NCBI GenBank assembly: GCA_036676985.1
Contig: JAKFBU010000067.1
Coordinates: 1-64,000 of the forward strand
Direction of reading: 5' to 3'
Origin: Candidatus Sericytochromatia bacterium
GTDB lineage: Bacteria; Cyanobacteriota; Sericytochromatia; S15B-MN24; UBA4093
Length of the DNA stretch: 64,000 nucleotides
Part shown: in pieces, positions 1 to 7,047 of the stretch
How positions within the stretch are numbered: the first letter of the stretch is position 1
How the letters are laid out: every line of letters begins with the position of its first letter
Translations under genes and position numbers: made by a program
The notes under the pieces: model-generated
Told to the model about the DNA's origin: nothing
Database searches by the model: none
What the model saw: the letters and a program-made list of their open reading frames with translations, nothing else

Positions 1-49
1 TTTCCTGGCTTGCTATACTGAGACCTCGTTGCGGCTCACACCGCGGCAC

Positions 50-122
50 GGCCAGGTAGCTCAGTTGGTAGAGCACGGCACTGAAAATGCCGGTGTCGGC
101 AGTTCGATTCTGCCCCTGGCCA
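50..122 (+). tRNA. tRNA-Phe(GAA)
   Basis: Cloverleaf GGCCAGG/CCTGGCC acceptor, D-arm GCTC-AGTTGGTA-GAGC, anticodon arm CGGCA-CTGAAAA-TGCCG, T-loop TTCGATT; CCA not encoded. Extended -10-like TGCTATACT at 11-19. Confidence 0.97.
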
Positions 123-129
123 CTTAGAG

Positions 130-160
130 AGAGCGCTTCCCTTCGGGGAGGCGCTTTTTC
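130..160 (+). terminator. Intrinsic terminator after tRNA-Phe
   Basis: GAGCGCTTCCC-TTCG-GGGAGGCGCTT stem-loop followed by a T run. Confidence 0.8.
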
Positions 161-826
161 GTTGCGCTGACTGTGGCATGGGGGAGCCGGTTCGGAGGCG
201 ACAGCGCCGCATGCCGTGCTGCCTCACGGGTATATTTTTGATCGGGAGCGGTCGTTGGTCCTGGCTGCTCTCGCCACTAGCCGGTTCGGCTGCACAGGGA
301 GTCAGGAACCGCAGGGTTATGGGCGATCGCCGCTGCTCACGGGGCTGTCCGTCACCCCATGCGGCTGGCCGAGGCCATGTCCGGAGCGGCGCAGGTGGAG
401 GTCTTGCCGGGCTGCCGCCATGTTCCGCACAAAGAGGTCGAATCTATCGTCCTCGAACACATCCGTCGTTTTCTCGCCCGAGCGGTACGCTGAACGACTG
501 GCATCGCTCCTTGTTACTGAAGAGAAGGCGGGTGCCGACACGCGACGTGATGGCTTGAAAGGCCTCCACTGAGGCTCGTGCCTCGTTATCGGCCTTCAGC
601 TCGACTGTGAGCTCAGACTCCTGTTGTTTGGACTCGTCCTGCAGGACCCTAGCCAGGGCCATGTTTGGGCAAGGTGTTCGGCTAATGGCAGCTTTATTAT
701 CCGCCAAGCCATCCCGCAACTTTCCACGGACGCGCCAGAGCGGCTGCTTCTTGAGCAATTGCGATGCGGCGTTAAGATGTCGGTCGAGACTTCGTTCGTT
801 CGAAGGTCTTGCGGGAGGGTAGCAAG

Positions 827-1393
827 ATGAGACAACGAGCCGAATGGGTCGGCCTCGGCATTCTCTTGAGTCTGGGGCTTGCCGGTTGTGGTGCGCCCAG
901 CCCAGTGGCGCCTACACCGGCGAATGCGCCGTCTACCGAGGCCGCGCTTCCCCAAGAGATCGATTTGACCAGTGGTGCCTCAACGTCGGGCACCTACGAG
1001 GTTCAACAGTACTACCGTGACATGGGCGGCGGCATGCGGGGCCCGACGCGTGGTGTGACGCCTACCTACCGAGTGCCCATCCGACGCGGCCCGGTATTCG
1101 TGGGCGGCATCCCCTATACGGCGCCGCCCATCAGCTGGCGTCCTTCCTGGCAACAAGTCCGGGAAGCCCAACTGAGGGCCCGGGCCCGGGAGGCGGCTGA
1201 CATTCAGCGCATGGCCAGATGGCAGGCGATTCAAGAAGCGGTGACAGAAATGCGGTACACGGTGGGCGACTTGCAACGACAGCTAAGTCGGACCAGTGAT
1301 CCGGCGGCTCGAAACAGCATCCTCAACCGGATCAGGTACCTGCAGATGCGCATCGGGCAAGGCATGAGGGAAATGTACTTCCCGAGCCGGTGA
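827..1393 (+). CDS. Lipoprotein, YxVQQ family paralog 1, Arg-rich C-terminus
   Basis: SD GGGAGG at 813-818, signal peptide with lipobox LAGC, clear similarity to the next two ORFs. Confidence 0.85.
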   Translation: MRQRAEWVGLGILLSLGLAGCGAPSPVAPTPANAPSTEAALPQEIDLTSGASTSGTYEVQQYYRDMGGGMRGPTRGVTPTYRVPIRRGPVFVGGIPYTAPPISWRPSWQQVREAQLRARAREAADIQRMARWQAIQEAVTEMRYTVGDLQRQLSRTSDPAARNSILNRIRYLQMRIGQGMREMYFPSR

Positions 1394-1490
1394 CCCGGCG
1401 CCACGCGGGAAGGCCATTCGAAACCGAGCCGGATCCCCCGTATCTCGATCGAGGCGTCCGCCCTTCGGAGGCCTTGTGGGAGGTGACAAG

Positions 1491-2090
1491 ATGAGACATC
1501 GAGCCGCAGTGATCGGTCTCGGCCTGCTTGTGAGCATGGGGCTTGCAGGATGTGGGGCCCCCAGCCCAGTTGCCCCGGCACCAGCGACCGCGCCGTCTAC
1601 CGAGGAAGCGCTTTCCCAAGAGGTCGAATTGACTGGGGAAGCCTCAACGTCGGACACCTACGAGGTTCAGCAGTACTACCGGGACATGGGTGGCGGCATG
1701 GTGGGCCCGACGCGCGGTGTGACGCCTACCAACCGAGATCCGATGATGCGCCGACCGGTGTACATGGGCGGCATCCCCATTTCGGGCCCGCTCGTCGGCA
1801 GGCGGCCAACTTGGCAAGAGTTGCAGGATTTCCGGATGAGGGCGCGCGTCAGGGCGGCGGCCGAGGCGGTGGTGCGAGCGTCTCGCCGAGCCGCCGAAAC
1901 GTACCGCATGGCGCGATGGCAGGCGATGGCCGAGCGGTACGCTGCGGGTCGCCAGGAGCTGCAAAGGCTTCGCTATGCGCTCGACAGGGCTCCGAACCCG
2001 GCCTTCAGGGCCCATCTTCAAAACCGCATCATGCTGCTGGAGCAGCGCCTGACCCAATATCGCCTCGAGCTGCAGTTCGGTGGGCGATGA
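1491..2090 (+). CDS. Lipoprotein, YxVQQ family paralog 2
   Basis: SD GGAGGT, lipobox LAGC, shares GAPSPVAP, TYEVQQYYRDMGGGM and RMARW with paralog 1. Confidence 0.85.
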   Translation: MRHRAAVIGLGLLVSMGLAGCGAPSPVAPAPATAPSTEEALSQEVELTGEASTSDTYEVQQYYRDMGGGMVGPTRGVTPTNRDPMMRRPVYMGGIPISGPLVGRRPTWQELQDFRMRARVRAAAEAVVRASRRAAETYRMARWQAMAERYAAGRQELQRLRYALDRAPNPAFRAHLQNRIMLLEQRLTQYRLELQFGGR

Positions 2091-2149
2091 GCGAATCCTG
2101 CGGCCATCGAGGGGGACTTCGTTCGCTCGATGGCCTAGGCGGAGGTGAG

Positions 2150-2623
2150 ATGATGAGACTGCGAGCCGATTTACTCGGCATCGGCCTACTCTTGAGCATC
2201 GGGCTCACGGGTTGCGGGGCGCCCAGTCCCGTGGCGCCCGCACCGGCTGCCGTACCGTCACAAGCGGTCGCGACGAGCCCTGAGGCGGCCCTTGCTGGGA
2301 CCTACCAGGTCCAGCAGTACCACCGGATGATGCCTCCGACCTCGGGCCTGACGCCCCCCTATCGCCCGGTCTATGGGCGTCGGCCTGTCTACTCGGGCGG
2401 CATGGGGCGAGGCGACATCTACCGAATGGCTCGGTGGATGGCCGCCCGAGACATCAGCGTGAACGCTGCGATGGAACACGCGAGGCTTGCCAATCTCCTG
2501 AGAATGCGACCGGATAGCCTCTATGTAGGTCAGTGGAGGGCCAGACAAGCGGCACTGGAGGCCCGAATGCGCCAAATGCGGCTGGAAATGTATTACGGTC
2601 CGCAGATCGGTCCCCAGTACTGA
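2150..2623 (+). CDS. Lipoprotein, YxVQQ family paralog 3
   Basis: Internal start of ORF 1550..2623 after SD GGAGG; lipobox LTGC, GAPSPVAP, TYQVQQ, RMARW. Confidence 0.85.
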   Translation: MMRLRADLLGIGLLLSIGLTGCGAPSPVAPAPAAVPSQAVATSPEAALAGTYQVQQYHRMMPPTSGLTPPYRPVYGRRPVYSGGMGRGDIYRMARWMAARDISVNAAMEHARLANLLRMRPDSLYVGQWRARQAALEARMRQMRLEMYYGPQIGPQY

Positions 2624-2633
2624 GCGGCAGCGT

Positions 2634-2864
2634 CTAGGATGGCCTGAGTCCCGGATCCGTCCAGGACTCGGGCCCTTCCGTTTCACGCCCGCGACAGGCG
2701 ACAACGACCCGTTGCCGTTGTTCATCCGACATGGAACCCCATGCCGCGATTTCGGAGAGGGTCCGAAAGCAACCCAGACACAGCGACCCGGCCGCATCTA
2801 GCCGGCAGATCTTGCGGCAAGGCGAGGGAACGCTGTTCAAGGGTCGGGCCTCCTGGGGTACCAT
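2634..2864 (-). CDS. DUF1289-like small Cys-rich protein
   Basis: SPCRKICRLD...CLGCFRTLSEIAAW pattern; start uncertain. Confidence 0.75.
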   Translation of the reverse strand: MVPQEARPLNSVPSPCRKICRLDAAGSLCLGCFRTLSEIAAWGSMSDEQRQRVVVACRGRETEGPESWTDPGLRPS

Positions 2865-2895
2865 GGGGACGTTCGGATCCATTCTAGGGGGTACC

Positions 2896-3678
2896 GTGCC
2901 CTACGTCATCGTTCCCGCCGTGGCCCTCGTCGCCGCCCTGCTCACCTTCTTCTCGGGCTTCGGCCTCGGCACGCTGCTCATGCCGGCCTTCGCCCTGTTC
3001 TTCCCGGTCCAGGTCGCGATCGCCGCCACCGCCGTCGTCCACCTTCTCAACAACCTCCTCAAGGCCGGCCTGGTCATGCGCCACGCCGATCGCGCCATCC
3101 TCGTGCGCTTCGGCGCCCCCGCGGTCCTCGCGGCGTTCGCCGGCGCATGGCTCCTGACCTGGGTCAGCGGCCTGCCCGCGATCCACACCTACGAGCTGGG
3201 GGCCCGGACCGTCGCCGTCACACCCGTCAAGCTGCTCGTCGGCCTCCTGCTCGGGACCTTCGCGATCCTGGACCTCTTGCCCTGGTTCCAAAGGCTCCAG
3301 GTGCCGCCTCGCTGGATGCCCATCGGCGGGCTGCTCTCGGGCTTCTTCGGCGGGATCTCGGGCTTCCAGGGCGCCCTGCGCTCCGCGTTCCTCGTGAAGG
3401 CCGGCCTGAGCAAGGAAGCCTTCATCGGCACCGGGGCCCTCATCGCCGTGCTCGTGGACCTGAGCCGCCTCTCCCTCTACGGGTGGGAGTTCGCCACCGG
3501 CGGCCTCGGCGGCGCTCGGGTCGGCCTCCCGCTCCTCGCCGTCACGACCGGGGCCGCCCTGGCGGGGACGCTCATGGGCAACCGGATGCTCCCGAAGGTC
3601 ACCATGGGCGCCATCCAGCGGCTCGTGGCGTTCATGCTCGTCCTGCTCGCGGTCCTGATGGCGCTGGGACTCGTCTGA
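2896..3678 (+). CDS. Sulfite exporter TauE/SafE family membrane protein
   Basis: Multi-TM protein with SGFGLGTLLMP and GGLLSGFFGGISG motifs; GTG start after AGGGGG. Confidence 0.85.
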   Translation: MPYVIVPAVALVAALLTFFSGFGLGTLLMPAFALFFPVQVAIAATAVVHLLNNLLKAGLVMRHADRAILVRFGAPAVLAAFAGAWLLTWVSGLPAIHTYELGARTVAVTPVKLLVGLLLGTFAILDLLPWFQRLQVPPRWMPIGGLLSGFFGGISGFQGALRSAFLVKAGLSKEAFIGTGALIAVLVDLSRLSLYGWEFATGGLGGARVGLPLLAVTTGAALAGTLMGNRMLPKVTMGAIQRLVAFMLVLLAVLMALGLV

Positions 3679-6153: not shown

Positions 6154-7047
6154 ATGGATCGTAAGTCCCGTGCCGCCCTCCTCTCTGTCGCCTCCAACAC
6201 CGGCCTCGTCGGCCTCAAGCTCGGCGTGGGCCTCTTCACGGGCTCGGTCGGCGTCCTGTCGGAGGCCATCCACAGCGCCATCGACCTCCTGGCGGCAGGC
6301 ATGGCCTTCTTCGCCGTACGCGCCGCGAGCAAGCCCGCCGACGAGGATCACGCCTACGGGCACGGCAAGTACGAGAACCTGAGCGGCATGCTCGAGGCCG
6401 CCCTCATCTTCGTGGCGGCCGTGCTCATCGCCTTCGAGGCCGTCGACCACATCCGCCATGCGGCGCCGCCGCCTGTCGTGGACCTGGGCCTCTGGGTCAT
6501 GGCCGCGAGCTCGGGCGTCAACTTCGTCGTGTCCCGCTACCTCTTCAAGGTGGCCCGCGAGGAGGACTCGGCGGCCCTCGAGGCCGACGCCCACCACCTC
6601 TCGACCGACGTCTATACGAGCCTGGGCATCTTCGCGGGCCTCCTGCTCGTCAAGGTCACGGGCCTCGGCGTCTTCGACGCCCTGACGGCACTCGGCGTGG
6701 CCGTCCTCATCTCCCGGATCGCCTGGGACATCTTCGCCCACTCCACGGGCATCCTGCTCGACACGAGCCTGCCCACCGAGGAGCGGGCCGAAATCGAGCG
6801 CATCCTCGCCGATCACACGCCGCCCCTGATCGACTACCACGACCTGCGCACCCGCAAGTCGGGCGCCCACCGCCACGTGGACGTGCACCTGACGGTGCCC
6901 GCCGAGATCACGGCGGGCGAGGCTCATGCGATCGCCGAACAGATCGAACGCGCCATCGGTGAGGCCCTGCCCAACACCCAGGTCATCACCCATGTGGACG
7001 TGGGGGGCGTGGACGCCCTCACCGGCCGCCCCTGGCGCAGCGACTAG
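6154..7047 (+). CDS. Cation diffusion facilitator (FieF-like) transporter
   Basis: EAIHSAID, HAYGHGKYE, ADAHHLSTD motifs and C-terminal ZT-dimer-like region. Confidence 0.92.
   Translation: MDRKSRAALLSVASNTGLVGLKLGVGLFTGSVGVLSEAIHSAIDLLAAGMAFFAVRAASKPADEDHAYGHGKYENLSGMLEAALIFVAAVLIAFEAVDHIRHAAPPPVVDLGLWVMAASSGVNFVVSRYLFKVAREEDSAALEADAHHLSTDVYTSLGIFAGLLLVKVTGLGVFDALTALGVAVLISRIAWDIFAHSTGILLDTSLPTEERAEIERILADHTPPLIDYHDLRTRKSGAHRHVDVHLTVPAEITAGEAHAIAEQIERAIGEALPNTQVITHVDVGGVDALTGRPWRSD

Follow-up and report, generated by a model that had tools for sequence, protein, structure and literature searches.

YxVQQ lipoproteins: an undescribed, lysine-free family from uncultured Sericytochromatia with a candidate role as tethered envelope modules

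What purpose might three small paralogous lipoprotein genes in tandem serve in an uncultured bacterium when no protease or immunity gene stands beside them? The question is raised by the first 64,000 nucleotides of contig JAKFBU010000067.1 from a Candidatus Sericytochromatia bacterium (assembly GCA_036676985.1), a stretch referred to here as the window. Near its start, on the plus strand, genes A (827-1393), B (1491-2090), and C (2150-2623) encode proteins of 188, 199, and 157 amino acids (P0001, P0002, and P0003, respectively). An original prediction, made from the letters of the window alone, regarded them as lipid-tethered precursors in which an acidic propiece precedes a cationic payload that is released or exported at a Y-x-V-Q-Q junction. 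The three proteins belong to a wider set of predicted lipoproteins that share the box and lack lysine after it. We favor, with a confidence that stops somewhat short of an even chance, a reading in which A, B, and C are lipid-tethered envelope "sticker" or scaffold proteins, with the box as a shared recognition element.

Each protein begins with a positively charged n-region, a hydrophobic h-region, and a lipobox (MRQRAEW-VGLGILLSLG-LAGC in A, MRHRAAV-IGLGLLVSMG-LAGC in B, and MMRLRAD-LLGIGLLLSIG-LTGC in C; lipobox criterion, [LVI][ASTVI][GAS]-C). The lipobox Cys codons are at 887-889 in A (L-A-G-C), 1551-1553 in B, and 2213-2215 in C, and the sequence L-[AT]-G-C-GAPSPVAP is common to all three. 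The genome has two matches to LspA (PF01252, E = 6.4e-35 each) and seven to Omp85, which indicates a two-membrane organism that makes lipoproteins. By these features A, B, and C are predicted lipoproteins of the Sec/LspA type, which supports the lipid-tethered status given to them originally.

A tether of 29 to 35 amino acids, rich in Pro, Ala, Ser, and Thr, leads from the lipobox to the box. It contains no Lys, no Arg, and one to six Asp plus Glu residues. The box reads T-Y-E-V-Q-Q in A (992-1009) and B (1656-1673) and T-Y-Q-V-Q-Q in C (2300-2317). The three paralogs within 827-2623, their GAPSPVAP sequence after the lipobox, the Tyr codons at 995, 1659, and 2303, the acidic tether without basic residues, and the lack of lysine had all been described correctly. 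In the six members of the array family (family 1) the T-Y-x-V-Q-Q box is invariant apart from Glu or Gln at its third position. Conservation was thought to end at the Gln-Gln pair except for R-M-A-R-W, but ten further positions after the box are also invariant in six of six members (R64, M70, P73, T74, G76, T78, P79, R82, P89, and G93 in P0002 numbering).

In B the box is followed by a conserved Arg/Tyr/Gly/Pro/Met segment that is predicted to be disordered (residues 62-107; 1674-1811) and then by a predicted Arg-rich helical hairpin that includes R-M-A-R-W (helices 108-165 and 170-196; 1812-2078) and has a net charge of +12. Across family 1 the net charge is -1 to -6 in the tether and +9 to +15 in the part after the box. 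The proteins are Met-rich, have zero Lys over their full length, and have no Cys after the lipobox. Gene C, which differs from A and B chiefly by a 33-column deletion, encodes a shorter paralogue without the first half of helix 1; its hairpin is predicted at helices 87-119 and 126-149 (2408-2596).

AlphaFold2 was run with the six-sequence alignment, and the shallowness of the alignments limits these models. Most of residues 22-97 of B had a pLDDT below 50 (four residues excepted), while the block-mean pLDDT of the hairpin was 87-97 over residues 111-190. In C, residues 18-85 were disordered and the hairpin had a pLDDT of 77-94. Amphipathic C-terminal helices had been proposed. The helices themselves are confidently predicted (pLDDT of 87-97), but with maximum hydrophobic moments of 0.64 in A, 0.63 in B, and 0.36 in C they are only moderately amphipathic. 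Foldseek returned no match at an E value of 0.001 or less among the 500 counted (best E = 0.66), and VIA-align returned generic hairpins only (Z of 9.9 or less, versus about 13 needed for helical folds). The hairpin is thus generic in these fold searches.

Family searches were equally uninformative. For A, B, and C nothing was above cut-off in Pfam, NCBIfam, PHROGs, or PADLOC. The best library matches, to DUF6381 (E = 0.049) and slr1601_fam (17.7 bits versus a cut-off of 70), were rejected, as was a match to an Rz-like spanin (E = 0.027) that was confined to the signal peptide. A sequence search of the PDB gave four matches at an E value of 10 or less, the best at 0.29, all over the signal and tether, and the best ESM Atlas score, 0.76, was uninformative. 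A word-indexed search of 5.8 billion proteins yielded, among 1956 candidates, five proteins with E values of 0.01 or less. Two of these are the window's own and three are from short metagenome contigs, with P0004 and P0005 on one contig of 2403 bp. A HMMER profile search of 1.84 billion representatives found two clusters at an E value of 0.001 or less. Among 61 related genomes, the array family was found in the window's own genome only; a match in the same-genus genome G001 is another lipoprotein, aligned over signal and tether only. Scans with the family profile recovered no relatives among 36 pattern stretches in genome contigs or 121 in metagenome contigs. Literature searches on lysine-free periplasmic proteins and on Sericytochromatia lipoproteins returned unrelated papers only; the motif itself was not searched for. 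By these searches the family is previously undescribed, as originally suspected, and no family or fold match assigns it a role.

The N-terminal module is more widespread than the array. Lipobox, tether, and a box of the form [YFR]-x-[VTA]-Q-Q head at least four other C-terminal types in the same genome and in sister genera: an RYG/W tail, twin-Cys cationic hairpins, W/G-rich regions, and YG plus REGGGG repeats. The box is 17 to 37 residues from the lipobox Cys. Seven of 481 lipobox open reading frames (ORFs) in the genome carry [VIT]QQ[YHF] within their first 90 mature residues, versus 0.7 expected; gene C, which the regular expression missed, is additional. Further members with other C termini, which the original prediction had suggested looking for, are thus present in the genome itself (P0007, P0012 to P0014, and an ORF on contig C30) and in genera g2 and g4. 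Genera g1, g2, and g4 have members, and none was found in g3.

One relative is P0007, a single-copy gene on contig C41 of the same genome (G000:C41, L005:1348-1812, minus strand) that the family 1 profile matches weakly (E = 2.3e-5). Its product carries the Y-x-[IT]-Q-Q box twice and also has a YRYRYRY run and a W-R-P box; the helical hairpin is missing. Together with two metagenome relatives, which are in tandem on one contig, it makes up family 2. Families 1 and 2 align in hhalign with a probability of 95.8% over residues 3-71. With the family 2 profile, the alignment to A and B extends from the signal as far as the W-R-P box, about 45 residues past the Gln-Gln pair, which does not support the original reading.

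Family 3 was found by scanning lipobox ORFs. P0012 and P0013 are in tandem on contig C47 (L107:5974-6297 and 6356-6646, minus strand), and P0014 is on contig C37 (L106:5645-6001, plus strand). The proteins are small and Lys-free, with an invariant V-Q-Q-[YH]-x-G-G followed by an Arg-rich twin C-x6-C segment that is probably a disulfide-stapled helical hairpin. Families 1 and 3 align with a probability of 96.8%, and the alignment stops at VQQY; on gene C, the family 3 profile can be aligned as far as the box. Of 31 related genomes, 5 contain family 3, all 5 belonging to the same taxonomic family, with relatives in sister genus g2. The tethers of family 3 have only zero or one acidic residue, which speaks against an acidic propiece as the general layout.

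The remaining types are more heterogeneous. The lipoprotein-like ORF on contig C30 (G000:C30:2408-3142, plus strand) has G-Y-H-V-Q-Q-Y and then a Trp/Gly-rich tail. In the G-Y-x-V-Q-Q-Y ORFs of this contig and of G004:C36 (L121) the tail is Lys-free, with 19 Trp and 42 Gly in 185 residues. G008:C66, from a sister genus, combines Y-S-V-Q-Q-Y with twin C-x3-C. G004:C36 is W/G-rich, G004:C49 has YG and REGGGG repeats, and G005:C21 is a further variant. With C termini such as the W/G-rich regions and the REGGGG repeats, a cationic payload is not general either. The relatives with W/G-, YG-, and REGGGG-rich tails look like structural or adhesive low-complexity proteins rather than peptides.

An order-wide DNA pattern search gave five matches in the window's genome and eight in the other 26 genomes, versus 17 control matches; only inspected matches that were found to be lipoproteins were counted as members. 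Three of the eight (G001:C200, G017, and G026) are chance matches, and four other lipoproteins with xQQ (C41:205438, C73:77160, C6, and C28) contain Lys and are not members. Tandem arrangements recur (A-B-C, P0013-P0012, and the pairs P0004 plus P0005 and P0010 plus P0011, each on a single contig). Comparison of 11 loci revealed no conserved neighbor gene, ABC exporter, or Tmk match, and gene contexts differed. The only adjacent ABC exporter, at the C47 locus, is 619 amino acids long, has no extra N-terminal domain by eye, and is not conserved beside other members. Judged from these sequences, the superfamily, which we call YxVQQ lipoproteins, is confined to a single taxonomic family of bacteria that are uncultured and have two membranes.

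A uniform property of the proteins examined is the absence of lysine after the box. There was no Lys in 2312 box-to-end residues of the 23 proteins that were parsed by script, and inspection by eye showed none in this part of three that the script did not parse (P0020, G002:C50, and G005:C21), so that 26 of 26 follow the rule. The tethers, over 600 residues, contain 5 Lys, 4 Arg, and 42 Asp plus Glu. Lys frequency in the genome is 3.15%; of 5332 proxy ORFs, 153 have no Lys, and many of these 153 are spurious. The mean Lys fraction in 369 predicted lipoproteins is 3.4%; 24 of these are Lys-free, several being spurious frames. The proteins are related within families, and the independent support for the rule is therefore about five C-terminal types rather than 26 cases. 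A five-residue box that does not vary, a complete lack of Lys over the more than 2300 residues that follow it, and five or more exchangeable modules point to a shared trans-acting machine for sorting, cutting, or cross-linking.

P0005 and P0006 are orthologues of A (84 to 87% identical), and P0004 is an orthologue of B (57%). Between A-type orthologues, identity is 41 to 71% in the tether, 88 to 93% in the RYG segment, and 87 to 96% in the hairpin region, which makes the C terminus the most constrained part and the tether the freest. Between the paralogues A and B the order is reversed, with 74% identity in the tether, 67% in the RYG segment, and 35% in the hairpin region. The C termini of the window's three paralogues are 20 to 35% identical. 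Rather than unrelated payloads, they are diverged homologues that are well kept between orthologues.

Synonymous sites bear on the contrast between a conserved N terminus and a variable C terminus in A and B. The proportion of synonymous differences (pS) between A and B is 0.26 to 0.33 in the first 104 columns and 0.74 in the remainder, and codons for the same residue are identical in DNA at 55 of 73 positions in the 5' half versus 15 of 34 in the 3' half (Fisher p = 0.002). Both results argue for recent gene conversion between A and B, over 827-1140 in A and 1491-1804 in B, and the conserved-N, variable-C pattern would come largely from this conversion of the 5' halves. The ratio of nonsynonymous to synonymous change (dN/dS) between A and B is 0.21 to 0.59 in every region, in keeping with purifying selection. 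Together with the ribosome-binding sites, the lipoboxes, the identity between orthologues, and the near-identity of strains, this marks the genes as real and under constraint.

Near-identical DNA is present in soil and groundwater metagenomes from several studies, and no RNA dataset was listed among the 21 sequencing runs. Contigs from four runs of four studies show single-base differences from the window. A divergent groundwater contig keeps the gene C signal and the YQVQQ region, but 82 letters of the tether (2217-2300) have given way to 79 different ones, so that the tether is again the free part. Another short contig matches 989-1030 only, the TYEVQQYYR region of A, with unlike flanks. These divergent contigs suggest that further, unassembled family members exist in nature. 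Conservation between orthologues and scant strain variation argue against an arms-race effector. The proposal of a polymorphic-effector array is not borne out, given the dN/dS values, the few-base differences between strains, and the lack of an immunity gene.

In the tethered-scaffold reading, tentative as it is, the mature proteins would keep their lipid anchor and work in the envelope as tethered modules for binding or scaffolding. Their Arg- and aromatic-rich parts might attach to one another or to an envelope polymer that is anionic or a carbohydrate. The YxVQQ box would be recognized across the superfamily by one trans-acting envelope factor that sorts, docks, cross-links, or cuts the proteins, and would not be a boundary peculiar to the A-B-C array. 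If so, these proteins are new lineage-specific building blocks of the envelope in a little-known uncultured group with an envelope that has hardly been studied. For an orphan family the sequence rules are remarkably strict, and a shared machine of the kind they point to could be found by genetics or proteomics. The Lys-free modules rich in Arg and aromatic residues also offer test cases for sticker-type self-association or periplasmic polymer binding.

Several observations weigh against this reading. An invariant box that stands at the end of a variable tether and heads at least five C-terminal modules also resembles a processing or sorting signal, and a simple scaffold role does not explain complete avoidance of Lys. 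The twin-Cys cationic relatives resemble, by analogy, helix-loop-helix antimicrobial peptides. The between-family hhalign scores are inflated by shared signal peptides. Furthermore, the G+C content at third codon positions (GC3) of genes A to C, 0.70 to 0.73, is below that of the genome's best-coding ORFs, which could reflect low expression or young genes.

A bolder possibility, which we consider doubtful though worth stating, is that Y-x-V-Q-Q is a new posttranslational signal, with the Gln-Gln pair as the place where an envelope enzyme particular to this lineage cuts or forms cross-links, either freeing at least five interchangeable Lys-free modules or fixing each at a single point. The modules would be the long helical hairpins, the twin-Cys hairpins, and the Arg/Tyr-, Trp/Gly-, and Tyr/Gly-rich low-complexity tails. 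With no Lys present, the new N terminus, or the acceptor of a partner, would then be the sole reactive amine. We know of no description of such single-reactive-amine logic for bacterial envelope proteins.

Somewhat less probable is a generalized form of the pre-pro-protein idea of the original prediction. Here a protease encoded elsewhere in the genome would cleave the protein at Y-x-V-Q-Q or beside it, and the Lys-free module would be released as an antimicrobial, signaling, or matrix component. The box is located exactly where the variable tether ends and conservation starts, its module heads at least five C-terminal types in three genera, Lys is tolerated before the box (5 of 600 residues) and never after it (0 of 2312), and members occur in tandem arrays. 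The twin C-x6-C or C-x3-C cationic segments of the relatives also recall plant alpha-hairpinins, which are cut from precursors (PMC7191063). However, no protease, exporter, or immunity gene is beside any locus, and at 100 to 140 amino acids the products would be large for peptides. Families 1 and 2 remain homologous through the supposed cut site and for about 45 residues beyond the box, and selection is purifying rather than diversifying, with almost no strain variation. Moreover, a product freed in the periplasm of a two-membrane cell would still need an export route, and the W/G-rich and REGGGG tails are not peptide-like.

Two further explanations are improbable to a similar degree. In one, the Gln-Gln pair, or a new N terminus there, is a site of covalent cross-linking of the transglutaminase or transpeptidase type to an amine of the wall or of a protein. 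Lys absence would then prevent self-linking and mislinking, so that each module is fixed at one point. This would jointly explain an invariant Gln-Gln in a flexible region and the Lys-free state of 26 of 26 proteins after the box, and Tyr/Gly/Trp-rich tails resemble cross-linked structural proteins. The Lys residues in a few tethers are awkward if self-linking must be avoided, and Arg-rich helical hairpins are atypical of structural-matrix proteins. In the other, box and tether direct lipoproteins to the outer membrane or cell surface by a lineage-specific route. The constant distance of 17 to 37 residues between Cys and box would fit, and lipoprotein sorting may be unusual in a genome that is scored 100% complete and has no LolA match, but this absence is weak evidence because the LolA model was positive in only 5 of 14 control genomes. 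Most predicted lipoproteins lack the box, which is present in 7 of 481, and a sorting signal leaves the Lys-free rule unexplained.

That the proteins are stress chaperones or metal-binding proteins of the CpxP/Spy/ZraP kind, periplasmic helical hairpins here anchored by lipid, is very improbable: the hairpin is cationic, the proteins are Met-rich, and Foldseek ranks ZraP chains (3lay) second to fifth (22 to 27% identity over 70 to 76 columns), but at an E value of only 0.71, with only generic hairpins in VIA-align, no Pfam LTXXQ or metal-resistance match at an E value of 10 or less, and Val in place of the first Met of MGGGM in three of six members, which rules out this sequence as a copper-binding Met motif.

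The surroundings of the genes offer no partner for them. The three ORFs are predicted from the DNA to form one transcription unit of paralogous small lipoproteins. Each has GGAGG 6 to 8 nucleotides 5' of its ATG (GGGAGGG at 813-819 for A, GGGAGG at 1478-1483 for B, and GGAGG at 2141-2145 for C); a longer ORF listed at 1550-2623 is the frame of gene C read from an upstream ATG. A small stem-loop is located just upstream of each ribosome-binding site (780-826, 1440-1490, and 2100-2149), the one before gene C being strong (-29 kcal/mol, z of -2.56; 4 of 200 shuffles as good). The last 45 or so nucleotides before the ATG are alike in all three copies, indicating that the duplication unit took in the 5' leader. 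Gene C is followed at 2641-2674 on the plus strand by a strong stem-loop (-41.9 kcal/mol, z of -3.72; 0 of 200 shuffles fold as well), after which comes CUUCCGUUUC. This stem-loop, a likely transcription terminator for A, B, and C, shares sequence with the 3' end of the DUF1289 ORF that converges on it (2634-2882, minus strand) and may serve both convergent units.

Upstream, the window starts at the contig end, shortly followed by a tRNA-Phe gene (50-123). The roughly 700 nucleotides between it and gene A (124-826) have a G+C content of 0.60 to 0.63, versus 0.67 for the genome, and contain no convincing ORF; in an Rfam scan of positions 1-3000 the tRNA was the sole match. Downstream of gene C are the convergent DUF1289 gene, a TauE-type permease, and aconitase. 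With only the paralogues in the unit and tRNA-Phe, DUF1289, and TauE at its flanks, the array appears self-contained, without partner genes, and the earlier statement that no protease or immunity gene is adjacent stands. The order aconitase-TauE-DUF1289 is kept in G001, whose contig ends there. This synteny is absent from G002, G004, and G007, and no TauE, DUF1289, or array match was found alongside 80 aconitase loci of other phyla. The aconitase itself gives an ambiguous signal as to phylum, its best matches being to a Chthonomonadia MAG (71%) and an Acidobacteriota MAG (68%).

Among known systems, the myxobacterial SitA polymorphic lipoprotein toxins share with YxVQQ lipoproteins a disordered stretch after the lipobox, a family-defining N terminus, and exchangeable C-terminal modules (PMC8546572). 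According to the same source, SitA escort domains are about 375 amino acids long, the C termini are nucleases, and an obligatory sitI immunity gene is in the same operon (PMC8546572). In contrast, the shared module here is about 55 amino acids in proteins of 157 to 199, no toxin domain was matched in Pfam, PADLOC, or PHROGs, the A-B-C unit has no immunity gene, and the C termini are conserved between orthologues.

Plant alpha-hairpinins and defensin-type pre-pro-peptides have a comparable succession of signal, spacer, and cationic helix-loop-helix module. Alpha-hairpinins are defined by C-X3-C...C-X3-C in a disulfide-stapled helix-loop-helix that is cut out of precursors (PMC7191063). Here the C-X3-C...C-X3-C pattern was seen only in the relative G008:C66. 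In A, B, and C there is no Cys after the lipobox, the hairpins are two to three times longer, and the proteins are predicted to be lipid-anchored.

The double-glycine leader peptides differ in other ways. These substrates of peptidase-containing ABC transporters (PCAT) have a leader without a Sec signal, a Gly-Gly cut site, and an adjacent exporter with a C39 peptidase. A, B, and C carry Sec/lipobox signals, and Gly-Gly after the box is absent from gene C and from families 4 and 5. Braun's lipoprotein Lpp is likewise a small helical periplasmic lipoprotein, of an abundant type, and an envelope tether is what we propose A, B, and C to be. Its trimeric coiled coil directly follows the anchor and is fixed to the wall via a C-terminal Lys, whereas A, B, and C lack Lys altogether and their helices come after 85 residues predicted to be disordered.

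We know of nothing in linker lipoproteins that corresponds to the unvarying YxVQQ box, to the conserved RYG segment, or to a complete lack of Lys, and the E. coli proteins of this type, such as LpoB, RcsF, Pal, and NlpD, have no sequence or fold relation to YxVQQ lipoproteins. What they do have is the same order of parts: a lipobox, a disordered Pro/Ala-rich tether, and, at the C terminus, a functional part that can contact a partner on the other side of the periplasm. Such long disordered N-terminal linkers are reportedly present in about half of the outer-membrane lipoproteins of E. coli (10.1101/2021.01.05.425367).

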